DNA of 64,000 nucleotides from an uncultured Planctomycetales bacterium. GTDB taxonomy: Bacteria > Omnitrophota > Gorgyraeia > Zapsychrales > Fredricksoniimonadaceae. The position numbers were made by a program, and so were the translations under genes. Below the pieces are notes generated by a model, which was given only the letters and a program-made list of their open reading frames with translations, searched no databases and was not told the DNA's origin. The stretch is from the NCBI GenBank assembly GCA_964483785.1, contig CAZACW010000003.1, positions 20,559 through 84,558 on the forward strand, given 5' to 3'. Shown here in pieces: positions 40,768-64,000 of the stretch (the first letter of the stretch is position 1; each line of letters begins with the position of its first letter).

Positions 40768-40876
40768 AATGGTGAATATGGCAACTGGCTACCTGTCCGG
40801 GCTACGGCCCGGGGTAAGGCCCTATAGCTTTGTGCCCCACCCTTTCGGGTGGTTTACCTTTTACATATCTAAGCGA

Positions 40877-40905: not shown

Positions 40906-41062
40906 GTTTACTAAAAATCAAATATAATTTGATATTAGGTATATTATTTGCCTAATAATCAAAGTATATTTTTGCGGTCAAGATTAAAAAGATCGATGTC
41001 AAATTCGACAGAAACAGGTTTTTATCCTAAAAAATTATTGTAAACCTTAGATAGATATTGAA

Positions 41063-43129: not shown

Positions 43130-43141
43130 GATTTGGAGAAT

Positions 43142-47299: not shown

Positions 47300-47310
47300 A
47301 TTTCTTACAA

Positions 47311-47337
47311 CCATCACAACCCCGGGGGTTGTGATGG
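47311..47337. repeat. Palindrome copy 3 (CCATCACAACCCCGGGGGTTGTGATGG), 12 nt upstream of the paralog-C start codon
   Basis: Read directly. Extends to A ... T at 47310/47338. Confidence 0.8.
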
Positions 47338-47373: not shown

Positions 47374-49098
47374 TCAATAGTTTTGAGTAATTTTATTGAA
47401 TTCTTCGATTTTGGCGGCCAGGGCCTTGCGCCGGCTTTCCAACGCATGGGCCTCATGGGTAAATTGGGACATGGAGCTTGCAATGGCCTTATCAATGGCC
47501 AGCAGTGCGCGGCTTTGTTCCAGCCAATTCCTTGAAATTTTATCCAGGCCCTTGCTTTGAAAGATTTTGATGTCTCTGGAAAGCTCGTTTAAGTATTCAT
47601 AATCTTCCATGCCTTCGCGAAACAGCTCCACGCGCAGGGACGGCCAGGGCCCGTTGTCACCGGGATAAAACAAAAGGCCGTTGCCGTTTTGCTCCCATTT
47701 CGAGTTTTTAGCGCTTTCAAAAGGATCAACCAGCGGCCACCAGTTCACGCACCAATACAAAAATCCCTTGATGCCGTATTTCCAGCAGAGCCAGGGGATG
47801 ATGCGGTAATCCATGGCATCAAAGTCCATGGCCAAATTCGGGGTCCCTGTGCCTGAAGGTCCGGAAATATACATCCAGATTTCCTTGCCCTTGTCCTGCA
47901 AGGCCCGCATTTTGGCCTCCTGAAAATCATCGATTTGAAAGCTCCAGATATCAATGTCCTTGATCCAATCCGCTCCGTCAGCCATGTCCCAAAGCCCGTG
48001 ATAACAGACCATATTTTTAAACCCTTGATCAGCTTTATGGAGCATGGCTGCGATTTTAGCGGCCTTGGGGTTGCCCATGTCCCCTTCATCCCAGGCATAA
48101 ATATAATTGTAATCAAAAAGATTTCGGCGCTTGAGGATTTGCGCATAGCTTGTGTATTGCGCTTGCAATGAACTTAAAGAAACATCATCCCCAGGCCAAT
48201 TATTATCAAAGGTCCCGCCTTTTTTGCCGATCGAGAAATTATTCAGGCCGTAGGCCATGTACCGGTTTAAATCCGACACATCGTCTTTGTTGGAGGGATC
48301 CACATTGAGGATCGGGTCCATCCGGTAAAGCAGCATGGTCAGGATAAATTGGTCCTTGATTTTTTTAATCCGTTGATCATAGGCATCCTGACCTTCGTTT
48401 GGTTTTTGCGGAAATCTTAATTTAGTCAAGTGGCCGTAAAAATCAAAGGCGGTTTTTAAATGGCTGACCGCGGGCAGGACGAAATCATAGACATGGATGG
48501 ACAAGTCAACAGCCTGCAATTTTTCCTCCTTGGCCATGACCAGGATTTTGCCTGTATAGTCTCCGGCCTCTGCATACGCAGGCGCATAAACAGTCACCCA
48601 GAAAGGCTGGGTCCGGTTGGCTGGAATCTTAATAGGATGCGGCGGCAGTAAAGGATCAGGCCATGGCCCGACATAGGCCGTCGGATAATAGGGCTTTTGG
48701 GTTGGGACATAACCTACGACTTTCCAGGTCATGTGTTTTTTATGGATGGTTTTTCCGTTTTGCTGATTCATGAGATCGTCCAGGACCAAATGCACATCTT
48801 CCAGAGGCCTGTCCTTGGTTTGAAGAACGATTTGAAAGGAACGGTATTCATTTTTGGCCATTGCCATCGAAGCGTTTGAGCCAAAATCAGGTTTTTTGAG
48901 TGTCCCGCCGTCCTGAAAAATCCGGTCTAAGCTGGAAGCGGTAAAAACCGCCACCCCATTTTGAAAAGCCGTGGGCGTTTTGGAAAAATAACGGCCGTGC
49001 TTCGGCTTGAATTTTTTAAGAAAAAAAAGTCCGCCGGCACCAAGGCACAGGCAAAAAAGAATAATGAAGAATTTATATTTGGGGAGTGCGCAGAACAT
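47374..49098 (-). CDS. Membrane-anchored hypothetical protein, possibly a DUF4091-like glycoside hydrolase
   Basis: 574 aa with an N-terminal TM (FFIILFCLCLGAGGLFFL). The function guess rests only on W/Y-rich acidic motifs such as YNYIYAWDEGD and EIWMYISG. Weak. Confidence 0.4.
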   Translation of the reverse strand: MFCALPKYKFFIILFCLCLGAGGLFFLKKFKPKHGRYFSKTPTAFQNGVAVFTASSLDRIFQDGGTLKKPDFGSNASMAMAKNEYRSFQIVLQTKDRPLEDVHLVLDDLMNQQNGKTIHKKHMTWKVVGYVPTQKPYYPTAYVGPWPDPLLPPHPIKIPANRTQPFWVTVYAPAYAEAGDYTGKILVMAKEEKLQAVDLSIHVYDFVLPAVSHLKTAFDFYGHLTKLRFPQKPNEGQDAYDQRIKKIKDQFILTMLLYRMDPILNVDPSNKDDVSDLNRYMAYGLNNFSIGKKGGTFDNNWPGDDVSLSSLQAQYTSYAQILKRRNLFDYNYIYAWDEGDMGNPKAAKIAAMLHKADQGFKNMVCYHGLWDMADGADWIKDIDIWSFQIDDFQEAKMRALQDKGKEIWMYISGPSGTGTPNLAMDFDAMDYRIIPWLCWKYGIKGFLYWCVNWWPLVDPFESAKNSKWEQNGNGLLFYPGDNGPWPSLRVELFREGMEDYEYLNELSRDIKIFQSKGLDKISRNWLEQSRALLAIDKAIASSMSQFTHEAHALESRRKALAAKIEEFNKITQNY

Positions 49099-50275
49099 GG
49101 GCGTAAACGGATTTTAATTGCCGGCCGATGATGTCCCAACTGTAACTGCCGCAGACGAGCCTGCGGCCTTCCTGGGCCAGGGCCTTGGCAAGATTCTTGT
49201 CATGCAATACCCGGACAATGGCTTGCGCAAAGTCAGCGGGCCCATCCGCTAAAAGGATATTGGCGCCGGCGGTATGCTGGATGCCTTCAGCGCCTATAAA
49301 GGTCGAAACCACCGGCCTGGACATGGACATGGCCTCCAGGATTTTAAGCCTGGTGCCGCCGCCGATGCGCAAAGGGACAATGAAAACTTCACAACGCTGA
49401 ACATAGGGCCTGACATCATCAACGCGGCCGGTGACAATCACCCGCGGGTCCTTGCCCGCCAGACTTTTGACCAGGCCCGAAGGTGATTTGCCCACCACGT
49501 ACAGTTTGGCGGAGGGCTGCCTGGCCCAGATCAGGGGAAGAATTTCAGCGCAAAAATAGGAGACCGCGTCCTCATTGGGCAGCCAATCCATGGAACCGGT
49601 AAAAACCATGGCCCCTTCTTCCTTATTATCATCGGCGGATTGGAAATATTCCGTATCCACTCCGTTGGGAATCACCTGCACCGGCGTCTGGCTTAAGACA
49701 AGGTTTTCTAAAATTGAGCGGTCCTCTTGGGAGCAGGCCAGGATGCTTTGGGCTGTTTTGGCCTGACGTACTTCATAGGTTTTCATTTTGCCGGCCTGCT
49801 GAAGGTAGAGCATTTTTTTGATTGGATTCGCTTCCACCTGGGCACAGCGCTCGAGGATTTTGAATTCCACGTTATGTTCATCCAAAATTTTGGGGACCCC
49901 AGGACCTGTCCCGCTATAATGGGCCATATGCAGATGGTCGATATGTACGGCATCAAAAGATTCGGCCTTGATCAAGGCCTCCATGGCCGAGCGCATGGCC
50001 AAGGATTGGTATTTGATGATCGCATGAGGCAGATCACCTGTGAGCACGTTCCAAACTTTTTGCGCCGAGGAAGATTCCAGGGCAGGCACCAGGGTGATGC
50101 GCAGGCCCAATTGTTTGAGTTCTTCCTTGAGTTGGGCATCTGCCGGGTCATAGGAAAAACTGAGCAAATGCACCTGGGCGTATTTTAAAAGCTGTTTTAA
50201 GATATTAAGGGTACGGATTTTTCCGCCGGTATCAGCGGGCAAAGGAAATCTGGGAGAAAGGAAAAGTATTTTCAT
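49073..50275 (-). CDS. Glycosyltransferase family 4 (GT-B, retaining)
   Basis: 400 aa. C-terminal EX7E-like region VVSTFIGAEGIQHTAGANILLAD. Confidence 0.8.
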   Translation of the reverse strand: MKILFLSPRFPLPADTGGKIRTLNILKQLLKYAQVHLLSFSYDPADAQLKEELKQLGLRITLVPALESSSAQKVWNVLTGDLPHAIIKYQSLAMRSAMEALIKAESFDAVHIDHLHMAHYSGTGPGVPKILDEHNVEFKILERCAQVEANPIKKMLYLQQAGKMKTYEVRQAKTAQSILACSQEDRSILENLVLSQTPVQVIPNGVDTEYFQSADDNKEEGAMVFTGSMDWLPNEDAVSYFCAEILPLIWARQPSAKLYVVGKSPSGLVKSLAGKDPRVIVTGRVDDVRPYVQRCEVFIVPLRIGGGTRLKILEAMSMSRPVVSTFIGAEGIQHTAGANILLADGPADFAQAIVRVLHDKNLAKALAQEGRRLVCGSYSWDIIGRQLKSVYAHVLRTPQI

Positions 50276-52507
50276 TTAGATCTCAACCGCTGCCCTGTAC
50301 ATTTGATGGTAGTCATCTGCCATGCGGGTATCGCTGTATTCCCGCTCAACATCTTGATAAGCCTGGTCAGCCAATTGCCTGCGCAAGGATGGATTTTGGA
50401 AAAGTTCCCCAATGGCCCTGGCCAATGCTTGAACATCCCCGGCTTCAAGTAAAAGACCATTGACATGGTCCTTGATCAATTGGCCCACCCCTCCGGTTTT
50501 AGTCGCTATCACAGGCACGCGGCTGGCCATGGCTTCTAAAATGGTCATGGGCAGACCTTCGCTGAAGGAGGCGTTGACCAGCGCGTCCATGGACCTGTAT
50601 ATTTCAGGCATGTCCTTGCGCAAGCCGGTTAAAATGATGTTTTGGGACACATTGAATTGTTTGATCTGCGCCTTGATTTGAGGCTCCAAAGGCCCTTCGC
50701 CGACGATCAACAATTTTATCCGCGGGGCTTGCTCAACCGCCCTGGCCATGGCCTCGATTAACACCTTATGCCCTTTTTCCAGGGCCAGGCGCCCTACGAT
50801 GGCCAGGACAAAATCATCCGCCGCAAGTCCGAATTCTTCCCTTAAATGCCCTGCAGTCAGGGAAGGCGAAAATTGCCGCAGATCAATGCCGTTGGCAATC
50901 ACGGATAATCGGCCGGCCGGATAATTTTTTTTCAGCAGATTCTGGTAATTGTTCTGCGACACGCAGACCACATGGTCTGCGAATTTCAAGACAAAGGCAT
51001 CCATGCGTTCATACCCTTTGAGTTTGGCGTCGGTGCCGATCCAGCCATGGATGGTGGCTGCCCATTTTTTGCCGGCCAAACGGGCGGCCCGTCCGCCCAA
51101 GAGATTGGCCTTATAATTGTGCGTATGCACCAGGTCAATGTGATGCTCCAAAATATATCTTTTGATTTGATCGATGGTTGTCAAATCAAAACGCCCCGAG
51201 GCCTCAAACACAGCATAGGCAAGCCCCATGCGCCTGGCTTCCTCAATGATCTCCAAATGCGGATTATGCGCATTATGAACAGCGCCCACGGTTTGTTGGG
51301 CGTTTTTCGTATGCGCGGCCAAATTTAAGATCACCCTTTCCGCTCCAAATAAGCCCGAGGAGCTGACTAAATGCAGGACCTTGATTTGAAACAGCCCTTC
51401 GTAGGCTGCCATCATTGCTTCCATGGAAAATTGGGACCTGACCCTCTCAAGCCCGTTTTGGCCCATGCTCTGCCTTTCTTGAGGGTTTTGGATCAAACGT
51501 TCCAAAGCTTGGGCCAGGGCCTCTGCATTTTCTTGATCGACGAGAAGGCCGTTATAACCATCCTTAACCAGTTCCGGATTTCCGCCGACCTTGGTGGCGA
51601 TCACGGCCTTGCCATGGGACATATATTCCAAAATGGCATTGGACATCCCCTCGCTTAAAGAAGGCAGGACGCACAGATCCGCCGCATCCAGTAATGCCGC
51701 GGCATCCTTGCGCTGGCCGAAGAAAAGCACCTTGTCCTTGATGTTCAAAGCATCGGCCATGGACTGGATGGCGCCGTTTAATTCATCCTTGCCGACGAGG
51801 ATCAATTTTACGAAAGGGTGCTGTTGGGATATTTTGGCAAAGGCCTGGATCAAATGAGCATGGCCTTTGACCGGCCTTAGATTGGCCACATGCATGATGA
51901 CCAAATCCCGGGGCAAGAGCCCTAAATCTTTTTTTTGCACGGCGCTGTCTAAGGGTTTTGCGTTAAACTCAACCCCATTATAAATGACCTTGATCTTCTG
52001 TGGCGGCACAGCTTCGGTGTCCCTGACCATGGCTTTGATGGATTCCGTCACTGTAACAATGGTCTGCACCCACGGATTGATGAGGCGATAGGCCCAGATA
52101 TGCAGAGGCCCGCGCCAGTACCCCATGTCCCTGCGGTTGGAAATGATGGAAGGCACCTTGGCCCAATGCGCCCACCAGGCGCCCCAGATATCCGAGCCGA
52201 AATGATAGGTCATTAAAATATGGATGGAATTGCGGCGCAGGAAATGATAAAAGCGCCAGCCTTGAAGCAGGCCTGAAAGGCCGTAAATCCTTTTGACACG
52301 GAAAATTTCAAAACAACAGCCGATGGCCTGGATCAAGGCCGGCGAGGTCTCTCCCTGCGCCTCCATGCTGATGATCCAAACATTGTAACGGTCCTTGGGC
52401 AGGCGCTTGGCAAGCTCAATGATCTGTTTTTCCGCCCCGCCGGTCACATCCCCCAGGCAATCCGTCAGCAGGGCTATATTGGTTTTCAATTGCGGCTGTG
52501 TCATCAA
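50276..52507 (-). CDS. Tandem fusion of two GT4 glycosyltransferase domains
   Basis: 743 aa. Two complete GT4 signatures: ... SLSEGMSNAILEYMSHGKAVIATKVGGNPELV ... and ... SFSEGLPMTILEAMASRVPVIATKTGGVGQLI ... Confidence 0.8.
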   Translation of the reverse strand: MMTQPQLKTNIALLTDCLGDVTGGAEKQIIELAKRLPKDRYNVWIISMEAQGETSPALIQAIGCCFEIFRVKRIYGLSGLLQGWRFYHFLRRNSIHILMTYHFGSDIWGAWWAHWAKVPSIISNRRDMGYWRGPLHIWAYRLINPWVQTIVTVTESIKAMVRDTEAVPPQKIKVIYNGVEFNAKPLDSAVQKKDLGLLPRDLVIMHVANLRPVKGHAHLIQAFAKISQQHPFVKLILVGKDELNGAIQSMADALNIKDKVLFFGQRKDAAALLDAADLCVLPSLSEGMSNAILEYMSHGKAVIATKVGGNPELVKDGYNGLLVDQENAEALAQALERLIQNPQERQSMGQNGLERVRSQFSMEAMMAAYEGLFQIKVLHLVSSSGLFGAERVILNLAAHTKNAQQTVGAVHNAHNPHLEIIEEARRMGLAYAVFEASGRFDLTTIDQIKRYILEHHIDLVHTHNYKANLLGGRAARLAGKKWAATIHGWIGTDAKLKGYERMDAFVLKFADHVVCVSQNNYQNLLKKNYPAGRLSVIANGIDLRQFSPSLTAGHLREEFGLAADDFVLAIVGRLALEKGHKVLIEAMARAVEQAPRIKLLIVGEGPLEPQIKAQIKQFNVSQNIILTGLRKDMPEIYRSMDALVNASFSEGLPMTILEAMASRVPVIATKTGGVGQLIKDHVNGLLLEAGDVQALARAIGELFQNPSLRRQLADQAYQDVEREYSDTRMADDYHQMYRAAVEI

Positions 52508-53889
52508 AGATCGTAATAGCGGACTTTTTTCTTAGGTCTGGCGGCAAAGGTCCTGGGTTTAAGCACCGCCTTGGCCGCTTGCGGGGCTTCTTCAACCGTC
52601 TGCGGCTTGGGCAGCCTGGTCATGGCATTCAACCTGCAGACCAAGGCCCCGAAAATCCAAAGATAGGCATTGGGTTCCATGTAGGACCAGCGGTCGCCGA
52701 AAAAATTATTGAAGGCCAAGATCACGATGCATATGCAAAGGCCTAAGCCCAGGGCCTTTTCCAACTCATCTTCCCCTTTTTGATACAGATAAAATCCTTC
52801 CCGGATAAAACAGAAAAGTGCTAGGACCAGGATCAAAAGGCCCACCAGGCCCTGTTCCGTCAGGATCTTGACATAGATATTGTGCGTATCCCCAAGGTCA
52901 AGGCCCAGGTAGCGGAAGGCGCCGTACCCGATGCCGACGACGGGGTTCTTTTGAAACAAGGCCATGGCCTGCTGCCAGATATTGATCCTGCGCTGGGAAG
53001 ATTCATCGAGCTGGCCGCTTTCGTTTTTAGTACCCTTGATGCGCTCCACCGCTTTTTCCGGCAATACGGCCTGCCACAAAGCCACGACCAAGATCAAGGG
53101 AATGAGCAATTTTTTGTTTTTGAGCAAAAATAAGATCATCATGCCGATGGCCATGCCGCCGTACGCCCCCCGGGAATAGGTAAAAACAATCGAATAAAAA
53201 TTCCAATAGATCAGGATGGTCAAGAGGATCTTGATCCTGCCTTTTTTAAGGGCGAATAAAAGGCTGAGCAATATGATGGTGTATTCATTGAAAAAGGCGG
53301 CCACCTCATTGGGCCCTAAAAACTGGAACGTGGCGGAGATTTTGCTGCGGGATTCCAGCGACGAGTACCAAAGCACCTGGTTAAAGGTGTAGTAATCCAT
53401 GATGCACATGGCAACACACATGGCGGCCACAATCTCCCAGATTTCTTTTTTGGTGTGCACACTGTTAAGGATGATGAAGTACAAAAGCGGCAGAACGCAG
53501 AAATTTTTCCAGTCCTGGACCCGTGAATCATGGATATCAAAGACGAATTGGCCGAAGATATAAAACCCGCCGATAATCAGGGAAATAAAGAGATAAAAGA
53601 CGAGCATCACCGAGATGCCGTTTAAGGATGAGGACTCGAAGAGTTTGCGGCCCTTGGTGCCGGATTTGGAAAACCAGCCGACGATGAGCGAAACAAGCAG
53701 AATGTCGATGAATTGGGTCCCGCCGGGGAAATCCTGCACCTTTTCCAGGATATTGCGCAGGGGCATCATGAAGGTGATGAGCAGGATGGCCCAGCGGCTG
53801 TTGCCGCCCAGCGCGGACAAGGCGCAAAACAGCCCGAAAAGATAGATCGTCAACGGCAGGAAATTTTTTAAGAGGATTCCAAGATGCAT
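52504..53889 (-). CDS. O-antigen ligase / Wzy_C-family polymerase-like membrane protein
   Basis: 461 aa, about 10 TM. A conserved TYSRGAYGG block and a periplasmic loop with His/Arg typical of the Wzy_C domain. Confidence 0.7.
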   Translation of the reverse strand: MHLGILLKNFLPLTIYLFGLFCALSALGGNSRWAILLITFMMPLRNILEKVQDFPGGTQFIDILLVSLIVGWFSKSGTKGRKLFESSSLNGISVMLVFYLFISLIIGGFYIFGQFVFDIHDSRVQDWKNFCVLPLLYFIILNSVHTKKEIWEIVAAMCVAMCIMDYYTFNQVLWYSSLESRSKISATFQFLGPNEVAAFFNEYTIILLSLLFALKKGRIKILLTILIYWNFYSIVFTYSRGAYGGMAIGMMILFLLKNKKLLIPLILVVALWQAVLPEKAVERIKGTKNESGQLDESSQRRINIWQQAMALFQKNPVVGIGYGAFRYLGLDLGDTHNIYVKILTEQGLVGLLILVLALFCFIREGFYLYQKGEDELEKALGLGLCICIVILAFNNFFGDRWSYMEPNAYLWIFGALVCRLNAMTRLPKPQTVEEAPQAAKAVLKPRTFAARPKKKVRYYDL

Positions 53890-53894
53890 ATCAG

Positions 53895-54413
53895 TTATTC
53901 ATTGAGGGTTTTGGCAGGAATGCCCACGGCCGTGGCCCCCGCGGGGACATCGTTTAAGACCACGGCATTGGCACCGATCTTGGCCCTGTCTCCGATCTTG
54001 ACGGCTCCCAGGATCTTGGCGCCGACGCCGATATACACATCGTTGCCTATTTCCGGCGCGCCCTTGCTGCCGTTGCCCCTGGTGCCGATGACGACCCCGG
54101 GACCTATGGAACAATGCTCCCCCATCTTGACATCGCTGTGCAGGATGATGCCGCCAAAATGCCCGACGTAAAATCCCTTGCCGATCTGGGCGCTGGCAGG
54201 CAGGGAAATGCCTGTCATCACCTCGGTCATTTTAAACAACAGGAAGGCGAGCAGTCTCAAAACCCAGGAAAGCAGCGGAATCTGGAAACTTCTGGCCCAT
54301 CGCCCCAATCTATAGACCGCGATGGCCCAAAGCCCTTGCTCAAAAATAAGGTAAAACGCGTGGCTTTCCAGGCCCCGGTATCTTTGGATATCTTCTTTAA
54401 AATGATTGAACAT
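53895..54413 (-). CDS. Hexapeptide-repeat acetyltransferase (serine O-acetyltransferase-like)
   Basis: 172 aa. Left-handed beta-helix hexapeptide repeats (IGPGVVIG ... IGNDVYIGVGAKILGAVKIGDRAKIGANAVV). Confidence 0.75.
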   Translation of the reverse strand: MFNHFKEDIQRYRGLESHAFYLIFEQGLWAIAVYRLGRWARSFQIPLLSWVLRLLAFLLFKMTEVMTGISLPASAQIGKGFYVGHFGGIILHSDVKMGEHCSIGPGVVIGTRGNGSKGAPEIGNDVYIGVGAKILGAVKIGDRAKIGANAVVLNDVPAGATAVGIPAKTLNE

Positions 54414-54425
54414 AAGCCGGTTATT

Positions 54426-55535
54426 TTAAGCCAAAGCGTAGACCTTTTGCATGGCTTGGGCAAAATTGTCCCAACTGAAGCGTTTGGCCTGGCCAAACCC
54501 TTTTTGGACCAGGTCCTGCCTTAACTGGTTATTTTGACATATTTCATTGATGGCGGCGGATATTTCTTGAATATTATTAGGATCGACCAGGACCGCCGCG
54601 TCCCCTGCCACTTCCGGGCAGGACGAGCCATTGGAAGTGATCACCGCCGCGCCGCATTGCATGGCTTCCAAAATCGGCAGGCCAAAGCCTTCATAGAGCG
54701 AAGGAAAAACAAAGGCATGGCAGCAGGAAAACAAGGCCACCACATCCTCATCCGTCAAATGGCTTAGGATTTTGACCTGCGGCTCCACCCCCCATTGCCG
54801 GGCCCTCTGCCGGTATTTGTCCGTGTCCATATTACTGCCTAAGACCAGGGTAAAATTTGTTTTGGCCTTGCTGGCGGCAAAGGCACGGATGATGCCGTCG
54901 ATATTTTTGCGCGGCACCGAGCCTACGGAAAACAAAAAAGGCTGATGCAGATCATATTTCGATTTTACCGCTTCCTGGGCCTTGGCCTCGGCCGGCTTGA
55001 AGCGCTCGTCCGCGCCCAAATGAATGACCTTGATCTTCTCTTCCTTAATGGCAAAATGCCTTAAAATGTCCTGCTTGGTGCATTCCGAGACCACCACACA
55101 GGCATCCAGGCTGTTGACGGTTTTTTGATAATTCCCTATGTTCTGCGCCCAAAATCCGTCCTTGATGGTCAGGGTCCTAAGATCATGGATGGTCAAAACT
55201 TTAAATATTTGGCTGGCCTGCGGCATGGTGTACCCCGCGGGGCGGTGAAAGACCCTGATTTTATGCGCTTTAAAAAATTGGGGCAGAAGAAAAGCATCAA
55301 TGAGCTGTTGGCGCATCCAAAAATCCCTGTCAGCCACGCGCAGGACATGTTTTTGAAAACGCTCTCCCTCAGGCCCGGGCATGTCCTGGGGGCTTCGCCG
55401 GAGCGAATAATAAGCCAGGTCAAAATGATTGACCTTGTCGTTTTTAAAAAGCCCGTTGACCAAACCTTCGGTATAGGTCATAAGGCCTGAACGGCGCGGA
55501 TGATTAAGGACAAAGGATTCAATGCAGATATTCAT
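54426..55535 (-). CDS. Glycosyltransferase family 4
   Basis: 369 aa. C-terminal FPSLYEGFGLPILEAMQCGAAVITS EX7E motif. Confidence 0.8.
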   Translation of the reverse strand: MNICIESFVLNHPRRSGLMTYTEGLVNGLFKNDKVNHFDLAYYSLRRSPQDMPGPEGERFQKHVLRVADRDFWMRQQLIDAFLLPQFFKAHKIRVFHRPAGYTMPQASQIFKVLTIHDLRTLTIKDGFWAQNIGNYQKTVNSLDACVVVSECTKQDILRHFAIKEEKIKVIHLGADERFKPAEAKAQEAVKSKYDLHQPFLFSVGSVPRKNIDGIIRAFAASKAKTNFTLVLGSNMDTDKYRQRARQWGVEPQVKILSHLTDEDVVALFSCCHAFVFPSLYEGFGLPILEAMQCGAAVITSNGSSCPEVAGDAAVLVDPNNIQEISAAINEICQNNQLRQDLVQKGFGQAKRFSWDNFAQAMQKVYALA

Positions 55536-55537
55536 AT

Positions 55538-56461: not shown

Positions 56462-57381
56462 TAGATTTGACCTGCCTTTCCCATCCTGCGGTATTCCTGG
56501 ATCATGCCCCAGGTGCGGAAAAAACGGCGGCAGGCATCATACCGGCCCAAGGCGTCAAATGATCCCGGCACAAAACGCAGGGCATTCTTCACAAGCTCTT
56601 TCCAAAGGTATCTGGGTACTGCCCCCCACAAAGGAAGGCCTTGGGCCCCTTCTTCCTTTTCTCTGAGGGCCGCGTATCCTCCCAAGGCCGTGTTCCAGCG
56701 CGCCGCGTGTTTTAAGGTCAGGCGGTTTAAATACACCGGATGTTGGACCAAGGCCGTGCCGCAATAAAAAAGTTTTTTCTGCTGTTTCATGAAGCGCTCG
56801 ACAATTTCCGTATCCTCGCCGATGTGGATGCGGTTGTTAAAAATCAAATCTTCGCGAAACAAGCCGCAGCTTTCAAAGAGCTCTTTGCGGAAAGCGAAAT
56901 TGGCGCTGATAAAACGAAAATAGGACAAATCATAGACAAAGGTTTTAAGGCCCTCATCATAAATCACCACCCCGCCGGAAATTTTTTTGGGATTGGTTTT
57001 GGCCCACGGCGGCGTGCCTTCCGGAAAGATGGGCAGGACCCTGCCGCCCACCCCGTCGCATTGGTTCTGCCCGAAACAGGCATCGATCTCCTGCAGCCAT
57101 CGGGGATCTGCAATAATATCATCGTCGGTAAAAGCCAGATACGCGCCCTTGGCCTGGCGGATGCCGTAATTACGCGCCGCGGCAGCGCCTTGATTGTCCT
57201 GGTAATAATAACGGATCCGATTTTCAAAAGGCTTTAATACAGTCCTGGTACCGTCGCTGGATCCATCATCAACAACAATGATTTCAAAGTCCTTGAAGCT
57301 TTGGGCCAAAAGGCTTTGAATGGCTTTGCCGATCCAGGAGGCGCGGTTATAGGTGGGGATGATGACACTGAATTTAGGCAT
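56461..57381 (-). CDS. Glycosyltransferase family 2
   Basis: FSVIIPTYNRASWIGKAIQSLLAQSFKDFEIIVVDDGSSDGT ... DDD. Confidence 0.8.
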   Translation of the reverse strand: MPKFSVIIPTYNRASWIGKAIQSLLAQSFKDFEIIVVDDGSSDGTRTVLKPFENRIRYYYQDNQGAAAARNYGIRQAKGAYLAFTDDDIIADPRWLQEIDACFGQNQCDGVGGRVLPIFPEGTPPWAKTNPKKISGGVVIYDEGLKTFVYDLSYFRFISANFAFRKELFESCGLFREDLIFNNRIHIGEDTEIVERFMKQQKKLFYCGTALVQHPVYLNRLTLKHAARWNTALGGYAALREKEEGAQGLPLWGAVPRYLWKELVKNALRFVPGSFDALGRYDACRRFFRTWGMIQEYRRMGKAGQI

Positions 57382-58333
57382 GCTGGTCCCTGTATACTTT
57401 GCGGATTTGCATGGCCTTGCCCCAATTCCTGTTTAATTCAATCCAGGCCATCAGGAATTCCCGCCGATTAAACAGATGCGCCAGCAAGCGTTTGATGTTG
57501 CGCAGAAAGACCGGAAACATATACCTTGGGACCCCCAGCCAATAAACCCAGGCAGGGTTGGCATGATTATGCTCATCCACCATGAACCGGTATTTGCCAA
57601 GCCCCGAGTTCCAGGCGCCAATATAGGAGAGGCTCATGCGGTTTTTTTCCACGGGATGCCAAACCACGGCCCTGCCGCAATAATAGAGTTTTTTGCCGGC
57701 TTTAAAAAATCGGTTGACGATTTCCGTATCATCGCCGAAACTGCCAGTGCCTGGGCCGATGGTCTCGGAAAAAAGGCCGTATTCCTTAAACAGCTCTTTT
57801 TTAAAGGCGAAATTCGAGCCCAAAAATTCAAACATAGGTTTTTCGTACGGCTTATGGTCCTGGCCGTAATCATACATGACGATAGGGCCTGATAAGATAT
57901 CGGCATTGGCCTTGACCCAGGACGGTGTTTCTTCAGGGTACTGCGGCAGCACCCGTCCGCCCACCCCGTCGCAGGCAAAGCGGGTAAAACAATCCGCGAT
58001 GTTCTGCAGCCAAAATTTGTCTGCGATAATATCATCATCCGTAAAAATCAGATGCCTGCCCACGGCCTGCTCAATGCCCAGATTCAGGGCCTTGCATTTG
58101 CCTGGATCAGGCTCAAAGCCATACCTTAAAGGGACAGGAGTTTGGGAGGCCAGTGATTTGATCATGTCCTTGGTATCATCCGTGGAATGATTGTCAACGA
58201 CCAGGATTTCCCAGGAAAATTTTCCGGTTGTGTTTTGGGCCCAGAGGCTTTCCAAACAGGCCTTCAGCTGTCGGCTGCGGTTGCGGGTCGCTATGATGAT
58301 GCTGAAATCCATATCCTGTCCTAACTTTTCCAT
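57374..58333 (-). CDS. Glycosyltransferase family 2
   Basis: FSIIIATRNRSRQLKACLESLWAQ ... EILVVDNHSTDDT ... DDD. Confidence 0.8.
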   Translation of the reverse strand: MEKLGQDMDFSIIIATRNRSRQLKACLESLWAQNTTGKFSWEILVVDNHSTDDTKDMIKSLASQTPVPLRYGFEPDPGKCKALNLGIEQAVGRHLIFTDDDIIADKFWLQNIADCFTRFACDGVGGRVLPQYPEETPSWVKANADILSGPIVMYDYGQDHKPYEKPMFEFLGSNFAFKKELFKEYGLFSETIGPGTGSFGDDTEIVNRFFKAGKKLYYCGRAVVWHPVEKNRMSLSYIGAWNSGLGKYRFMVDEHNHANPAWVYWLGVPRYMFPVFLRNIKRLLAHLFNRREFLMAWIELNRNWGKAMQIRKVYRDQHA

Positions 58334-58914
58334 TGAATACCGTTTTTAATCACCCTGGCCGGCACACCGGCTGCGAGGCTGTGAGGCGGGACACTCTTGG
58401 TCACCACAGACCCGGCGGCAATCACCGAGCCCTCCCCGATCGCCACTCCTTTTAAAATAATGGCCCGCATGCCGATCCAGACATTGTCCTCGATGACAAT
58501 GGGTTTGCTTAATTCATAGCCTTCATAGCCCATGTGATGGGCGTCCGCATCATTGAGGACCACCTCGCTCGATATGTAGACATTGCGGCCGATGGTGATT
58601 TTATTATTGCAGAACATTTTGGAATCAGTCCAGATATATCCGCTGCCTAATTCCACAATCCCGCCCTTGTTAAGGGTGATCACATTCCCGGCATAGACCG
58701 TAAAATGGCCCCGGACAATGACCTTGCTCTCGCCGAATATGTTGATCTGGGTCGGCTGATGGGTGGGGTAATTGCGGTCTTTATTGCCCAGTTCAAGTTT
58801 TGCGCCCCGATGAATGATCAGGGATTTGCGCAGGCCGTTGATTTTGGCCGGCGGGCAAATGGTCAAGCCCGGCATGGTGATGATCTTGTCCTTAATTTTC
58901 TTCAATAAGGTCAT
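58321..58914 (-). CDS. Hexapeptide-repeat O-acetyltransferase (maltose/galactoside acetyltransferase-like)
   Basis: 197 aa. ... DNVWIGMRAIILKGVAIGEGSVIAAGSVVTKSVPPHSLAAGVPARVIK. Confidence 0.8.
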   Translation of the reverse strand: MTLLKKIKDKIITMPGLTICPPAKINGLRKSLIIHRGAKLELGNKDRNYPTHQPTQINIFGESKVIVRGHFTVYAGNVITLNKGGIVELGSGYIWTDSKMFCNNKITIGRNVYISSEVVLNDADAHHMGYEGYELSKPIVIEDNVWIGMRAIILKGVAIGEGSVIAAGSVVTKSVPPHSLAAGVPARVIKNGIQWKS

Positions 58915-60242
58915 GGCTGGGGCCCTGCGGTGCCGTCTTTTTTAAATTCATTGATCCATGTCTTGATTTCAGCTAATTCTTCGGGATATTGCTTGATATA
59001 TCGCTGATGGTCCAAATGCATCCGGGCGATATTGGCTTCCACATTGTCCTTGGTTAAGAGCATGCCGAAATCCTTAGGGCATGGATGTTGAGGATCATCG
59101 GTTTCGAACAACCGGTTTAAGATCATGTCTCCGATCTGTTCCTTGAAATGCGAGGTATCCCAATAATTGGCCATTTCTTCATGGCTGCCTTCCGGGGGCA
59201 ATGGTTCTGTAGTGACGGAGGAATATCCGTAAAAATCATAAAGGGGAATGGGTTTTTGATCAGGGTGCCGGCTTGCCTCCAGGGCCAGGATCTTGACCAA
59301 GCGCCGTTTTTCGTTATCTATGGGACCCAGCCCCCCTTCCACCTTGATGGCAATTTCAAGCAGGCGGGCATGGGATGGTGTGGTGAAAATCTTCAAGGCG
59401 ATGTGATGATAGCGGCAATACTCAATGATTTTATAAAGATAATCAAAAGAACTCAGCGGGTCTTGCTCGACCGCCACCACGTCATGATAGGGCTTGATCT
59501 CCTTGACCGGAGGAGCTTCTTCGATCAGCAAATTTTTGATCAGGGCATGGTCCAGCCTGTCCATGTATTCTTCCGGGCCTAATTTTTCAAAGTCCCAACT
59601 TTTTCTCCGGTAAAATTTGTCCCCGATCCTTTGCCCGTCAGCGGCGATCCAAGATGCCGCGGCGGATTTTTGCTTTAAGACGGTGTTCCAGCTGGATTTG
59701 AGGGCATCCATGCTCGTTAATATCTTGATATCGGCCAAGGCCAGCTTGACCTTAGACCATAAAGAAGCGTCGGACATTAAAATGTCCGGGTCAAAATCGA
59801 TTTCAGGCTTATCCGGCTTGTCGAGCCTCGGATAAAGGTCCAGGCCCAAAAGGACCAATTTCTGCGGACGCACATTACCGGCATGGATCAGGTAACGGTA
59901 CATTTCTTCGACCGAGGCGCTGTCTATGCCGAGATTGTAGCGATGCCCGGCATTGCGGCCCCAAGCCGGATGATTTGTCCGCAAGCCGAAATAACAACGG
60001 GAGCTGCCTAAAAGGACCGAATCGGGTTTAAGCCTTCGGATATCATAGGCCTTTAAAAGACGTCCGCGCTCATAGGTCGAAGGTTTTTTGGCATTGAAAT
60101 TTTTAATGGTCAAAAGGTCAAACATGCCGAAAGGATCAACCAATAGATTCCAAAGCGCCGCAGTTCCCATGAGAAGAACAACGGTCAGGACCATGGCCCA
60201 CAGATATTGGGAAGATGTTGTCTGGGATTTAAATTTTGACAT
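58911..60242 (-). CDS. Hypothetical single-pass membrane protein with a large periplasmic domain. Start at MSKFKSQTTSS. Possible SGNH/AlgJ-like acyl-transfer partner (speculative).
   Basis: TM YLWAMVLTVVLLMGTAALW. A DSVLLGSSRCYFG block reminiscent of an SGNH block I. No other recognisable motif. Confidence 0.45.
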   Translation of the reverse strand: MSKFKSQTTSSQYLWAMVLTVVLLMGTAALWNLLVDPFGMFDLLTIKNFNAKKPSTYERGRLLKAYDIRRLKPDSVLLGSSRCYFGLRTNHPAWGRNAGHRYNLGIDSASVEEMYRYLIHAGNVRPQKLVLLGLDLYPRLDKPDKPEIDFDPDILMSDASLWSKVKLALADIKILTSMDALKSSWNTVLKQKSAAASWIAADGQRIGDKFYRRKSWDFEKLGPEEYMDRLDHALIKNLLIEEAPPVKEIKPYHDVVAVEQDPLSSFDYLYKIIEYCRYHHIALKIFTTPSHARLLEIAIKVEGGLGPIDNEKRRLVKILALEASRHPDQKPIPLYDFYGYSSVTTEPLPPEGSHEEMANYWDTSHFKEQIGDMILNRLFETDDPQHPCPKDFGMLLTKDNVEANIARMHLDHQRYIKQYPEELAEIKTWINEFKKDGTAGPQP

Positions 60243-62118
60243 AGGCCGATAAAATGAAATCTTCCTTGCTTTTGGCAAACCAAAATTGATTGAATTGGGC
60301 CCCCTGCATGGAGATAATCCTGGGAGGGTTTTCCTCAATGGCCAGCAAGGCGCAGGGAGTAAAATGACCCAATGGATATTTCAATCCGGAGGAAATATTA
60401 CTGACTTGAACATGCTCGATCCTTAAATCCGCATCAGGATGTGCCTCCCGTAACAAGAGCCAGACGGGATATTCCCAGGAATCCACACCCATGATAAGAC
60501 CAATAAAGCGGCAATGGGTTGATTTGATCTTTTGGGCCGCCTGCTCGAAATAAGGCTGTTTTTCCGGGCTGATGGCAAAGTATTGCGGGATGATGGGGCT
60601 GGTCAAAATATTCCGGCGGCCCGGGGTCCACGGATGGTAATGATTGCTAAACAGCCAGGGCATGGAACAGACAAAGAAAATCAGGCTTGCCCACACCATG
60701 GCCCGGGGGACCAGCCGCTCCATAAAAACCGCGCAGGGCGCGCAAAACATCAAAAACAGCCAGAGATGAAAGCGGCTGATCCACGGCTGCCAGCGGATGA
60801 TCCAGCAAAACAGGATAAAGGACGCCAGCAGGGACAACAGGTAGGGCCAAAGCCCCCCGCTTTTTTGGGGCAAAACGAGCATCACGGCCAAGATCAGCGC
60901 GAAGAAAATAAAATGCATGAAATTACCGGCCCTGTCTTCGTCCGTATTCATGGCTGCGACGGAAAATTGACGGTTTAAAAAGGTGATGTCACGGTCATTG
61001 CCTGAAGCGCCTAAGGCATGTTCCGCAGAAAGAATAATTGTTTCGAACATATGATTAAGCCGTTGGGAAGGCGTTCCTAAGTGAGGGCCGGCCGCGCGCA
61101 GAACATTGCGCAGTAAGGTATGTACATCATGGGAAGCATTGACCAGGGTCGGCGTTTGCGGCGTTAAAGAGCCGGACATCTGATGATTACGCTGAAAATA
61201 TCCGGCGCTTAAGGACAGCGCTATCAGGACCATGATAATCCCGGGCCCAATTCTTTCAGCGGAGCTTTTAAACGGCTGAAACAAATAATTTAAGAAAAAA
61301 GGGATGATGTAAATATAGGCATAGCCCTTGGTCAAAAACGCAAGCCCCATGCCTATCCCGGCGCCCAGAATATTCGAGGCCTTTGGCACGCTTCTGAGCC
61401 GCAAAAGAAAATAGACAGCAGATAAAAGCCAAAAACTGACTAAATAATCGGTTTGAGTACTAACGGACTGCAAAATACCCATGGGCAAGGAAACGGCCAG
61501 CAAGCAGGCAAAAAGCTGGGCCTTGCGCGAGGCAGATAATTCTTGGGCGATCAAGGATATGGCTGTCAGGGAACCGAGCATGGCCCCCCATTGCAAGGCA
61601 TTGGCCGCTGTATCCGGGGCTTTTAAAGCCAAAAGATTGGCCAGGGCATATTCACCCCAGGGCGGATATATATTTTGCCGGTCTATGGCGCAAGGATAAA
61701 AGGCAACGGTCTTGTTTTGCAGCCAATGTTCGATGCGGGCAAGATGGTACACCAAGGAGTCCCAGGAATTGGGGGCGCCAAGCAGCGCGGTGATGAGGGT
61801 GATCAAGGCGATGAATTTGATCATCAAGATCAGGATTTTTTCATCACGGGGAAACCCCTTCCAATCTAAATCATTTAAAGGAAGGAGCTGCCATCTGCCC
61901 ATGCTTCCCACGATCAAGACAGCCAGGGACCAGCAGATGGATAACGGCCAAAAGCTAAAGGCATGGAACAAGCTCAAAATTTCCGTAAACAGCAATACCG
62001 CAAGGCCGCTGCCGCAGGCGGATAAGAGCAAGGCATGCCTTAGGCCTGAGCCATTCCATTTTGTCCTGGCCAGGGCAGCCAAAAAATAGAAAAACAGTAC
62101 GGGAAGAATAGCCAGCAT
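60229..62118 (-). CDS. Polytopic GT-C-fold membrane glycosyltransferase (ArnT/PMT/COG1807-like), putative
   Basis: 629 aa, at least 11 predicted TM in the N-terminal two-thirds and a periplasmic C-terminal domain. It is immediately downstream of an ArnC/GtrB-like GT2. Confidence 0.5.
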   Translation of the reverse strand: MLAILPVLFFYFLAALARTKWNGSGLRHALLLSACGSGLAVLLFTEILSLFHAFSFWPLSICWSLAVLIVGSMGRWQLLPLNDLDWKGFPRDEKILILMIKFIALITLITALLGAPNSWDSLVYHLARIEHWLQNKTVAFYPCAIDRQNIYPPWGEYALANLLALKAPDTAANALQWGAMLGSLTAISLIAQELSASRKAQLFACLLAVSLPMGILQSVSTQTDYLVSFWLLSAVYFLLRLRSVPKASNILGAGIGMGLAFLTKGYAYIYIIPFFLNYLFQPFKSSAERIGPGIIMVLIALSLSAGYFQRNHQMSGSLTPQTPTLVNASHDVHTLLRNVLRAAGPHLGTPSQRLNHMFETIILSAEHALGASGNDRDITFLNRQFSVAAMNTDEDRAGNFMHFIFFALILAVMLVLPQKSGGLWPYLLSLLASFILFCWIIRWQPWISRFHLWLFLMFCAPCAVFMERLVPRAMVWASLIFFVCSMPWLFSNHYHPWTPGRRNILTSPIIPQYFAISPEKQPYFEQAAQKIKSTHCRFIGLIMGVDSWEYPVWLLLREAHPDADLRIEHVQVSNISSGLKYPLGHFTPCALLAIEENPPRIISMQGAQFNQFWFAKSKEDFILSAYVKI

Positions 62119-62125
62119 GGTCTGC

Positions 62126-62815
62126 CTATGATGTAAACCTGTATTTGATGATCGGCCAATACATTTGCAGGGCCGTGCCCCAACGGATTTTCTTGCCTTG
62201 TGCGCGGGTGCGCGCGGTATAGCCGATGGGAAGCTCCTTGATCCTAAGCCCTTTTTTCAGGAATTTGATCGTGACTTCCGTCTCAAAGGCGAAATTCTGG
62301 GCGGTGATGGTGATGCCTTCAAAGGCCTTGCGCGTGAAAATTTTGTAACAGGTATTGATGTCCGTGATCCTGACGCCCCAGAGGGCGGAAAAAGTCCAGT
62401 TGGAGACCACGTTGGCGAAGCGGTTGATCCCCTCCATGTTCTGAATATGGCCTAAAAATCGGGAACCGTAAACAACCTGATATTCCTCTTTCAAGATGGG
62501 TTCAAGCAGTTTGGGATATTCATAAGGGTCATATTCCAGGTCCGCATCCTGGATGAGCAGGATATCTCCCTGGGCCTTGCTGAAACCCGTCAAGAGGGCC
62601 GATGTTTTGCCTCCGTTGGGTTTTTCAAAGACCTTGATAAGCGGTTGGGAAGCATATTTTTTCAAAACATCCGCGGTCCTGTCCTTGGAGCCGTCATTGA
62701 CAATGATGATCTCCTTGGTCAGGCCGGAAGGCAGCTGCACGGACAAGACCCTGTCAATCAGGGAAGCCACGGATTTTTCTTCGTTGTACACAGGTATGAT
62801 AATGGAAACCAGCAT
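62126..62815 (-). CDS. Polyprenyl-phosphate sugar synthase, GT2 (ArnC/GtrB/DPM1-like)
   Basis: MLVSIIIPVYNEEKSVASLIDRV ... IIIVNDGSKDRTADV ... LIQDADLEYDP. 229 aa and soluble or peripheral. Confidence 0.8.
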   Translation of the reverse strand: MLVSIIIPVYNEEKSVASLIDRVLSVQLPSGLTKEIIIVNDGSKDRTADVLKKYASQPLIKVFEKPNGGKTSALLTGFSKAQGDILLIQDADLEYDPYEYPKLLEPILKEEYQVVYGSRFLGHIQNMEGINRFANVVSNWTFSALWGVRITDINTCYKIFTRKAFEGITITAQNFAFETEVTIKFLKKGLRIKELPIGYTARTRAQGKKIRWGTALQMYWPIIKYRFTS

Positions 62816-62837
62816 CGAATGCTCCTTTGGTTTTTGT

Positions 62838-64000
62838 TTAAAATTGAAAATAAATAAACTCTGAGACCTTAGACAACATCATAAGGGAACAGGCGAATAA
62901 AAAACCGGCATACAAGGCCCAACTGAGCGTTGGCCTCCAGGGCCCCTGCAGGGCCGGTGATTGCTTTTGTTTTTGAACATGACTGCTGTATTCCGGGCCG
63001 CTGTAATGCATCAAGGTCTGCGTATTGGGCGCAAACCAGGTGACCGACAGCAGGACCAGGGCCAGGACCAGGGTCACGGCCGGGTCCACCGGCGATCGCG
63101 AGAATTGCGCGTGATGGTCCCAATGGGCCAGGGACGGCGGCAGTAAAAAGCCGTGAAGGCCCATCATGCTTTTGAGTATGTCCCAGGCAATGGACACATC
63201 CGCGGCCCGGAAAAAGACCCAGCCGACGAGCACGGCCAAAAAAGTCAGGGCCTGGGAACAAAGATTGGCGCCTGCATTGTTTTCTGGTACAGAGATGTTC
63301 AGGCGCGCCAACAGGGCCCTCCATCCGTGGTTGATGATTAAGTAGGTCCCGTGCAAGGCGCCCCAGACCACAAAGGTCCAGCCCGCGCCATGCCAGATCC
63401 CGCCTAAGAGCATGGTCAAAAGCAAATTGACATATCTGCGCACCGGGCCTTTGCGGTTGCCTCCCAGTGGAATGTAAAGGTAATCTCTTAAAAAGCGAGA
63501 AAGCGTCATATGCCAGCGTTGCCAGAATTCGATGATGCTTTTAGATTTGTACGGGGAATTGAAATTCACAGGCAGATGGATGCCAAACAAGAGGCCGATG
63601 CCGATGGCCATGTCCGAGTAAGCTGAAAAGTCAAAATACAGCTGGACCGCGTAGCTCAAGGCCGCACTCCAGGCCGCCAGAAAATCCAGGTGCTGGCCTT
63701 TGGCGCAAACGTTAAACTGCAGTGTGGCAAATTTGGCGATGGTGTCCGCCACCATCACTTTTTTGGAAAGGCCGATGGCAAAGATCGTCATGCCCCAGGA
63801 AATCGAATCCAGGGTAACGGGTTTGGACTGCTTGAATTGGGGGATCACCTCGCTATGGTGTGTGATAGGCCCGGCAATAAGTTGAGGGAAAAAGGTCACA
63901 AATAAGGCATAATCCAAAAGGTCCAGGGAAGCGACCTTGTTCTGGTAAATGTCGATCAAAAGCCCGATTTTTTGGAAGGTAAAGAAAGAGATCCCGATAG
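62838..64000 (-). CDS. MBOAT-family membrane O-acyltransferase (AlgI/DltB-like). The 5' end lies beyond the window end.
   Basis: FFPQLIAGPI ... WQRWHMTLSRFLRDYLYIPLGGNRKG ... GIWHGAGWTFVVWGALHG with the conserved His. The frame stays open upstream to position 64000. Confidence 0.8.
   Translation of the reverse strand, partial: IGISFFTFQKIGLLIDIYQNKVASLDLLDYALFVTFFPQLIAGPITHHSEVIPQFKQSKPVTLDSISWGMTIFAIGLSKKVMVADTIAKFATLQFNVCAKGQHLDFLAAWSAALSYAVQLYFDFSAYSDMAIGIGLLFGIHLPVNFNSPYKSKSIIEFWQRWHMTLSRFLRDYLYIPLGGNRKGPVRRYVNLLLTMLLGGIWHGAGWTFVVWGALHGTYLIINHGWRALLARLNISVPENNAGANLCSQALTFLAVLVGWVFFRAADVSIAWDILKSMMGLHGFLLPPSLAHWDHHAQFSRSPVDPAVTLVLALVLLSVTWFAPNTQTLMHYSGPEYSSHVQKQKQSPALQGPWRPTLSWALYAGFLFACSLMMLSKVSEFIYFQF

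Follow-up and report, generated by a model that had tools for sequence, protein, structure and literature searches.

We analyzed a window of 64,000 nucleotides (nt) from an uncultured Planctomycetales bacterium that GTDB places in the Omnitrophota (GenBank assembly GCA_964483785.1, contig CAZACW010000003.1, positions 20,559 to 84,558 of the forward strand); all coordinates below are those of this window. On balance, we favor the view that an operon at 49073-64000 on the minus strand assembles and decorates a surface heteropolysaccharide (an exopolysaccharide [EPS], a capsule, or an O-antigen-like polymer) of an exosortase-associated locus, with periplasmic glycosylation and O-acetylation of that glycan. 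This view builds on domain and fold identities, on sequence motifs, on the packing of the operon, and on the conservation of both of its two-gene modules: a small family 2 glycosyltransferase (GT2) with a GT-C transferase, and a membrane-bound O-acyltransferase (MBOAT) with a DltD-like partner of 443 amino acids (aa), here called p443. In kind, the system is ordinary; its gene order is unusual. We consider a dedicated role in protein glycosylation much less probable.

Operon organization

The initial annotation of this DNA, made by reading the sequence without database searches, described 49073-64000 as a glycan island of fifteen genes. Our count is 13 open reading frames (ORFs), all on the minus strand. 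The components that had been named were recovered by Pfam at their positions and on that strand, with the exception of p443, which has no match. Neighboring ORFs overlap or lie at most 22 nt apart and are therefore taken as one operon, in which no space is left for an extra gene, such as one for a flippase. Around the GT2/GT-C pair, the gaps measure 7 to 22 nt, with one overlap of 14 nt. The MBOAT frame is open up to base 63998, and the N-terminal ~120 aa of the protein lie beyond the window; both this gene and the operon are therefore cut by the window end, which falls at the upstream end of the operon.

Downstream, the operon runs unbroken into a gene for a GH123-like protein, which overlaps the last glycosyltransferase (GT) gene by 26 nt, and then into the genes for three secreted proteins, which a gap of 56 nt separates from the GH123-like gene. 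The island is the upstream part of a long minus-strand run that continues to an exosortase module. Promoter and terminator scans gave a signal no higher than background, and PADLOC returned zero matches for five island proteins, which gives no support to a role in anti-phage defense. The GH123-like hydrolase, encoded in this operon too, probably processes glycan.

47374-49098, minus strand: GH123-like glycoside hydrolase, membrane anchored (GH123_cat, 79.4 bits; GH123 N-terminal domain, 52.8 bits; one N-terminal transmembrane [TM] helix)

The GT2/GT-C pair

62126-62815, minus strand: GT2 of 229 aa without a TM helix, a predicted polyprenyl-phosphate sugar synthase resembling dolichol-phosphate mannose synthase (DPMS), GtrB, ArnC, and PpgS (PDB and NCBIfam matches)
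60229-62118, minus strand: polytopic GT-C-fold glycosyltransferase of 629 aa from a diverged PMT_2 clade (PF13231 PMT_2, 35.6 bits against a cut-off of 26.1)

The 229-aa GT2 is homologous, over its entire catalytic domain, to polyprenyl-phosphate sugar synthases of solved structure. A phmmer search of the PDB matched it to Pyrococcus furiosus DPMS (5mlz, 2.9e-21, residues 1-212), GtrB (5.7e-17), and ArnC (4.5e-16), and the DXD motif is present in the form DAD at residues 90-92. Its best NCBIfam matches were to AglJ, ArnC, PgfS, an archaeal dolichol-phosphate (Dol-P)-hexose transferase, and PpgS, all of them below cut-off; the PgfS model matched at 1.3e-20, and the ArnC model scored 78 bits against a cut-off of 529.

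Identification of the 629-aa protein, which carries a C-terminal alpha/beta domain of ~120 aa, came mainly from structure prediction. Neither a phmmer search of PDB sequences nor a family profile search returned a useful match. An AlphaFold2 (AF2) model with 27 homologues in the alignment reached a pLDDT of 92 and a pTM of 0.93, and a family alignment of 27 members revealed invariant residues E46, D120, D224, K264, and R310. When this model was compared with the PDB by Foldseek, the top 32 matches were all GT-C enzymes, including ALG12, ArnT, Pmt4, AftA, ALG9, Emb, STT3/PglB, and DPY19, at identities of no more than 14%. Because of these matches, we are confident that the modeled protein is a GT-C glycosyltransferase, not a membrane protein of some other kind, and one that is not assignable to GT39 or GT83. 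ArnT superposed with a TM-score of 0.54 (normalized by target length); the Pmt structures aligned over only ~260-290 columns, with TM-scores of 0.25-0.29.

Two specific identities were ruled out. For an ArnT/GT83 transferase of 4-amino-4-deoxy-L-arabinose (L-Ara4N) to lipid A, there is no significant sequence match (the GT-C family profile hits ArnT at an insignificant E = 8), and the window has no arnA, arnB, or arnD gene. For a eukaryote-like PMT/GT39 protein O-mannosyltransferase, the protein matches PF13231 only, with neither PF02366 nor a MIR domain.

The pair recurs widely. A scan of GTDB species genomes yielded 293 relatives of the GT-C, the best ones (44% identity) from Omnitrophota and others from Planctomycetota, Nitrospirota, cyanobacteria, and further phyla. 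Among 80 related loci whose gene neighborhoods were analyzed, a high-scoring GT2 of 229-233 aa lies directly upstream of the GT-C gene on the same strand in L002, L004/L086, L005, L006, L012, L031, L034, L051, L061, and L088, and weaker orthologues of the small GT2 occur in L011, L054, L064, and L070. We conclude that the two genes form a module that is conserved and portable. In Nostoc punctiforme NIES-2108, it lies within a Wzt/ABC-type polysaccharide cluster with genes for methyltransferases, GT2 and GT4 enzymes, GDP-mannose dehydratase, and rhamnose synthesis, and in a metagenome-assembled genome (MAG) of the candidate division FCPU426, it lies among Wzy_C, Wzx, GT4, and Bac_transf genes, so placement in polysaccharide loci recurs in independent phyla. 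About a fifth of the GT-C family members sit among Leloir GTs; most of the 80 related loci have no recognizable glycan-assembly neighbors. Taken together, the PDB matches of the GT2, the GT-C fold, and the conservation of the pair support its earlier description as a polyprenyl-phosphate-sugar synthase with a periplasmic transferase.

Some relatives show other arrangements. In two Omnitrophota loci, L086 (9305-14825) and L088 (9300-17868), the pair is followed by polytopic proteins of 467-562 aa without a Pfam match, a TPR protein, a second GT2 of 234 aa, and a YfhO-family protein, with no Leloir GTs; this gene set forms a cluster of several GT-C-like proteins. On one 63-kb contig, L087, two paralogous members of the GT-C family (6569-8314 and 10001-11887) flank a 486-aa protein without a Pfam match, and no small GT2 was called near either paralogue.

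The MBOAT and its DltD-like partner

62838-64000, minus strand: PatA/AlgI-type MBOAT acyltransferase, incomplete at its N terminus (PF03062, 1.6e-33)
58911-60242, minus strand: p443, 443 aa, with one TM helix at the N terminus and predicted to adopt a DltD-like SGNH fold (motifs G79-S-S81-R and D362-x-x-H365)

The best NCBIfam match of the MBOAT is DltB, at 162 bits and below the cut-off of 375. The invariant His lies in an RWH motif (residue 148 of the partial protein), and the C terminus, SEFIYFQF, contains the acyl-shuttle motif FxYxxF. PatA auto-acetylates the Tyr of this motif with acetyl-CoA as the donor, and the acetyl group is then passed to an SGNH partner, whereas DltB is without the motif and depends on DltX and DltC (PMC12148441).

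The true start of p443 is 60242, as evidenced by the gene call in L001, a database locus of the same sequence. Searches of Pfam, NCBIfam, and PDB sequences found nothing that matches the protein, even with a family profile, and none of 56 close homologues has a Pfam domain. Structural comparison gave DltD, and not PatB, as the best match, and with its helix and its Ser/His/Asp triad, p443 has the features of a membrane-tethered partner of predicted SGNH fold. It belongs to a large family, mostly from soil and sediment metagenomes, that comprises 5,125 clusters at 50% identity (E <= 1e-3), 1,726 of them with E <= 1e-30.

We collected 84 p443 neighborhoods from metagenomes and contig look-ups, of which 70 have room for an upstream gene; in ~67 of the 70, an MBOAT gene lies immediately upstream on the same strand. 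This adjacency, the FxYxxF motif, and the DltD-like fold support the proposal that the two proteins are an AlgI/PatA-type extracytoplasmic O-acylation pair, as the initial annotation had suggested for the MBOAT and a single-pass SGNH-like protein. Dlt-type D-alanylation was ruled out: the MBOAT has a fused shuttle motif, and neither the window nor the related cassettes contain DltA, DltC, or DltX.

In this window, the MBOAT and p443 genes are not adjacent; the GT2 and GT-C genes stand between them in the same operon. None of the p443 loci with an upstream MBOAT contains the GT2 or the GT-C, and none of the 80 GT-C loci contains the MBOAT-p443 cassette except L001, which is this same sequence. 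In the order MBOAT-[GT2-GT-C]-SGNH, one module is thus nested within the other, an arrangement that none of the other loci shows. It may be accidental, or both periplasmic decoration steps may share one product.

Clustering of the genes around the cassette gave no third conserved partner, being dominated by antisense shadow ORFs of high-GC contigs. On the long contigs that are informative, the genes next to the cassette encode a PEP-CTERM protein, pseudopilins, a deacetylase, or a large GT2 synthase; in a Gallionellaceae contig (L082) and one other, the neighbors are a large GT2 synthase and a deacetylase.

Cytoplasmic enzymes and the Wzy_C protein

Nine further genes complete the island:

58321-58914, minus strand: hexapeptide-repeat sugar O-acetyltransferase, cytoplasmic, WbbJ/WcaF/LacA-like (Hexapep, 7e-13; NCBIfam matches)
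57374-58333, minus strand: GT2 Leloir glycosyltransferase (GT2a), 42% identical to its paralogue at 56461-57381
56461-57381, minus strand: GT2 Leloir glycosyltransferase (GT2b), the paralogue of 57374-58333
55538-56461, minus strand: GT2 Leloir glycosyltransferase, TuaG/WcaA-like (Pfam, NCBIfam)
54426-55535, minus strand: GT4 glycosyltransferase (Glycos_transf_1, 3e-33)
53895-54413, minus strand: hexapeptide acetyltransferase of the CysE/EpsC/WcaB type (Hexapep, 3.7e-15; EPS_EpsC, 119 bits against a cut-off of 150)
52504-53889, minus strand: polytopic Wzy_C-domain protein with at least 7 TM helices (Wzy_C, 72.6 bits against a cut-off of 31.7)
50276-52507, minus strand: GT4-GT4 fusion of 743 aa with two complete GT4 units (two stretches matched by every GT4 Pfam model)
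49073-50275, minus strand: GT4 nearest to stp1 of XrtA systems (TIGR03087, 285.5 bits against a cut-off of 316.65, profile positions 1-387 of 397)

The halves of the GT4-GT4 fusion are 25% identical, and the protein is nearest to stp2 (TIGR03088), with 392.7 bits summed over both units against a cut-off of 409. Among NCBIfam models, the Wzy_C protein scored 71.8 bits with PEP_O_lig_1 (cut-off, 188) and 37 bits with TfpM. The stp1, stp2, and PEP_O_lig_1 families are all associated with XrtA systems.

The exosortase module and the wider locus

Beyond the island, the minus strand encodes, in order, the secreted proteins, a set of genes resembling a type II secretion system (T2SS), a deacetylase with a PgaC-like GT2, an exosortase with EpsI, a priming polyprenyl glycosylphosphotransferase (PGT), and a histidine kinase with a sigma-54 regulator. 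The group containing the exosortase, EpsI, the PGT, and the deacetylase lies ~25 kb downstream of the island on the same strand:

26474-27256, minus strand: polysaccharide deacetylase (Polysacc_deac_1, 8.4e-26)
25326-26477, minus strand: membrane GT2 of the PgaC/synthase type (domain, NCBIfam, and TM evidence)
24497-25375, minus strand: exosortase, type not assigned (PF09721, 1.3e-62; TIGR02602, 171.9 bits against a cut-off of 105.55)
23863-24495, minus strand: EpsI, exosortase associated (TIGR02914, 98.7 bits against a cut-off of 42.8)
22820-23623, minus strand: priming PGT, Bac_transf (PF02397, 1.2e-69; TIGR03025, 312.2 bits against a cut-off of 295.55)

The exosortase scored 174.6 bits with the XrtA-specific model, below its cut-off of 208, and the XrtD and XrtW models score similarly; the priming transferase scored 267.9 bits with EpsB_2 (cut-off, 393). 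Haft et al. reported that the usual companions of EpsH are group 1 GTs, a deacetylase, and a bacterial sugar transferase (PMC1569441), a set that this wider locus carries. The PgaC-like GT2 and deacetylase beside the exosortase (25326-27256) could make a second, synthase-dependent polymer resembling poly-N-acetylglucosamine (PNAG). Directly downstream of the priming transferase, at 19163-22756 (minus strand), are a PocR/GAF sensor, a sigma-54-dependent response regulator, and a GAF histidine kinase; these regulators resemble PrsK/PrsR of PEP-CTERM loci, the PrsK model scoring 88 bits, below its cut-off of 300.

The three secreted proteins (37361-47317, minus strand; 1,110, 688, and 1,391 aa) are paralogous, and each has a signal peptide. 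They consist of a Cys-rich, beta-helix-like N-terminal domain of ~600 aa, which has no Pfam or PDB sequence match, followed by one to seven Big_7 Ig repeats and Ala/Ser/Pro-rich linkers. They could be enzymes that bind or degrade glycans, as opposed to passive cargo. Between them and the exosortase module, on the same strand throughout, lies a complete T2SS-like set (27276-36746, minus strand) comprising a secretin, GspE, GspF, pseudopilins, a GspK-like protein, a PilM/N fusion, and a PilO/GspM-like protein.

The remainder of the window includes a 690-aa triple fusion of porphobilinogen deaminase, uroporphyrinogen-III methyltransferase, and HemD (15012-17084, minus strand), flanked by hemB, hemL, and a gene for a DAO-family oxidoreductase. 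The named homologues of the HemB encoded here all belong to Candidatus Omnitrophica, with identities of 73-75%, which identifies the source as an Omnitrophota MAG. One ORF of more than 3,963 codons (1-11889, minus strand) runs off the start of the window; none of three sampled segments (630-1,000 aa) has a Pfam match, and the ORF has no PDB sequence match. Giant genes have been reported for Omnitrophota, and an ORF of this size is consistent with them.

Proposed mechanism

From the gene content, we infer substrates, an acceptor, and an order of steps as follows. The priming PGT (22820-23623) would start a repeat unit linked to polyprenyl diphosphate, which would be extended by the cytoplasmic GTs (seven Leloir domains: three GT2s, one GT4, the GT4-GT4 fusion, and the stp1-like GT4) and modified by the two cytoplasmic hexapeptide acetyltransferases. 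After being flipped by a flippase not found in the window, the unit would be polymerized or ligated by the Wzy_C protein. In the periplasm, two decorations may then follow. The 229-aa GT2 would make a polyprenyl-phosphate monosaccharide, from which the GT-C would move the sugar onto the glycan. The MBOAT would charge the Tyr of FIYFQF with an acyl group, probably an acetyl taken from acetyl-CoA, and hand this group to Ser81 of p443, which would O-acylate the polymer. Finally, the membrane-anchored GH123-like hydrolase might trim or release the product. Side-chain glycosylation of O antigens by a GT-C after polymerization is a published three-component route (PMC11127046), and the placement of the pair in the polysaccharide loci of Nostoc and FCPU426 fits that route.

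Weighing the alternatives

Several observations weigh against a surface polysaccharide as the product of this operon. Pfam scans found no Wzx, Wza/Wzc, or nucleotide-sugar genes in the island, as the initial annotation had stated, and none in the whole 64-kb window. They likewise found no flippase of the GtrA, MATE, or ArnE/F type among the scanned window ORFs, the operon being cut at 64000. A motif scan of the C termini of all window ORFs found no PEP-CTERM substrate, returning spurious antisense ORFs only; other parts of the genome may encode such substrates. The stp1, stp2, PEP_O_lig_1, and XrtA models all score under their curated cut-offs, and the Wzy_C protein may serve as a polymerase of repeat units, as a ligase, or as an O-oligosaccharyltransferase, roles that are indistinguishable here. 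Also, in the closest Omnitrophota relatives (L086 and L088), the GT2/GT-C pair lies outside polysaccharide loci, beside amt, P-II, glutamine synthetase III (GSIII), and NAD-synthase genes; therefore, the acceptor of the pair need not be this polymer.

From the missing transport and sugar-synthesis genes, the initial annotation had argued that this is not a self-contained polysaccharide locus. That argument is weak, because the window includes a priming enzyme as well as an exosortase module and because the upstream end of the operon is outside the window. The same strand carries the priming PGT, the exosortase, EpsI, the deacetylase, the PgaC-like GT2, and the stp1- and stp2-like GT4s.

The setting of the pair in L086 and L088, where Leloir GTs are absent, leads to a different proposal, namely, that the GT2 and GT-C are a housekeeping envelope module for lipid A or the lipopolysaccharide (LPS) core, peptidoglycan, or another periplasmic acceptor, which landed in an MBOAT-SGNH cassette and whose acceptor is unrelated to the polymer of the neighboring GTs. 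The many related loci without recognizable glycan-assembly neighbors fit this proposal, as does ArnT being among the best structural matches of the GT-C. Nevertheless, the profile match to ArnT is insignificant, no L-Ara4N genes (ArnA/B/D) or other lipid A modification genes occur in the window, and the pair is translationally packed within a glycan operon here. Considering also the fifth of the family that sits among Leloir GTs, the Nostoc and FCPU426 polysaccharide loci included, we regard a housekeeping role as unlikely.

A detached function can be imagined for the other module too. In most of the 84 loci, the MBOAT and p443 genes stand by themselves and no third partner recurs, and the MBOAT shares the C-terminal shuttle motif of PatA. 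The cassette might O-acetylate peptidoglycan in the manner of PatA/PatB, or some other envelope polymer, instead of the island polysaccharide. We give this idea little credence. The best structural match of p443 is DltD and not PatB, the informative long contigs place the cassette beside GT2 synthase, deacetylase, PEP-CTERM protein, or pseudopilin genes, and in the present glycan operon its two genes enclose a glycosylation module.

The initial annotation had looked to the neighboring secreted proteins as the acceptor, and the gene order invites this: glycan, cargo, and T2SS genes follow one another unbroken on one strand, with the 56-nt gap after the GH123-like gene. The island would then be a protein O-glycosylation system, in which the GT-C adds single sugars to Ser/Thr residues of the linkers or a PglL/TfpM-like Wzy_C protein transfers a whole oligosaccharide. 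The cargo proteins have suitable features in their signal peptides and in the Ala/Ser/Pro/Thr-rich linkers between Ig domains. In streptococci, a GtrB- or PgfS-type GT2 and a GT-C glycosylate Ser/Thr-rich extracytoplasmic regions (PMC12041528), and PgfS is among the models that match the 229-aa GT2. Moreover, the Wzy_C protein matches a model named "putative O-glycosylation ligase, exosortase A-associated" as well as TfpM, and the absence of Wzx, Wza, and Wzc from the window suits a protein acceptor.

Comparative evidence points the other way. In a search of the 10 kb around each of the 80 related GT-C genes, the cargo N-terminal domain, the Ig region, the secretin, GspE/F, GH123, Wzy, and the exosortase were all without a relative, so the link between pair and cargo is not conserved, and elsewhere the pair is found in classical polysaccharide loci. 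The precedent enzymes PgfM and PgtC2 are YfhO-type and not PMT_2-type, the PEP_O_lig_1 and TfpM scores of the Wzy_C protein are far under their cut-offs, and seven Leloir GT domains with three acetylation activities exceed what a typical protein-linked glycan requires. A protein-dedicated island thus strikes us as a doubtful reading. Because of the streptococcal precedent (PMC12041528), glycosylation of the cargo is still conceivable. In its most specific form, which we hold to be quite improbable, the cargo proteins would receive O-linked glycans, and possibly O-acetyl groups, in the periplasm before the adjacent T2SS exports them; the glycosylating enzyme would be the GT-C, a PglL-like Wzy_C protein, or both, and MBOAT-[GT2-GT-C]-SGNH would reflect a four-protein periplasmic decoration complex. 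If true, this would directly link the assembly of glycan to secretion and make the locus a dedicated glycoprotein-secretion supercluster in Omnitrophota.

Implications

The Omnitrophota are known almost entirely from MAGs, and the surface polysaccharide reading favored here offers a first functional outline of how they may produce cell-surface glycans. In addition, a diverged PMT_2-type GT-C with a short Dpm1/PpgS-like GT2 that has no TM helix emerges as a portable module of Omnitrophota, cyanobacteria, FCPU426, and other phyla. The p443-type family of single-pass proteins of ~430 aa, as the habitual partner of PatA/AlgI-type MBOATs, merits a family model and a name. Both modules extend known mechanisms to unannotated families and leave current concepts unchanged; of modest interest are a DltD-like family that has lacked annotation and a gene order in which one module is nested in the other.

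Comparison with known systems

The GT2/GT-C pair resembles three-component systems for periplasmic glycosylation, such as GtrA/GtrB/GtrX, which glucosylate the O antigens of Shigella and Salmonella, ArnC/ArnT, PpgS/Rv3779, and the PPP-ribose synthase, MATE flippase, and GT136 enzyme of Citrobacter (PMC11127046), in that a GT2 and a GT-C are encoded side by side, in polysaccharide loci of several phyla. It differs from them in having no flippase (GtrA, ArnE/F, or MATE) in the island or window. Whereas GtrB, ArnC, and DPMS have TM helices, the 229-aa GT2 has none and resembles the short PpgS and archaeal Dol-P-hexose transferases. The GT-C, for its part, is at most 14% identical to solved GT-Cs and has PMT_2 as its only match.

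A GT2 lipid-sugar synthase and a GT-C beside genes for secreted adhesin-like proteins are also found in the streptococcal Pgf and GtrB/PgtC2 systems (PMC12041528). Their GT-Cs are YfhO-type and their hosts Gram positive, and no cross-genome link between pair and cargo accompanies the likeness here.

With the MBOAT-SGNH systems (PatA/PatB, AlgI/AlgJ/AlgX, WssH/WssI, and DltB/DltX/DltD), the acylation module shares the invariant His, the FxYxxF motif, a single-helix SGNH-type partner with Ser and DxxH, and genes that are almost always adjacent in relatives. However, p443 is closest to the DltD fold, yet DltA, DltC, and DltX are missing, no AlgF- or AlgX-like components were seen, and the GT2/GT-C pair separates the two genes.

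At the level of the whole locus, the closest parallels are EpsH/PEP-CTERM exopolysaccharide loci (PMC1569441), including Methylobacillus eps and the floc loci of Zoogloea and Aquincola. In contrast to these, the exosortase here scores under the XrtA cut-off, and the window is without a PEP-CTERM substrate, a chain-length determinant, a tyrosine kinase, or Wza; also, the genes of a complete T2SS and of three large secreted proteins set the GT island apart from the exosortase. What the Omnitrophota locus shares with them is the exosortase, EpsI, a Bac_transf priming enzyme, a deacetylase, GT4s near stp1 and stp2, a Wzy_C protein near PEP_O_lig_1, and a sigma-54 regulator pair.

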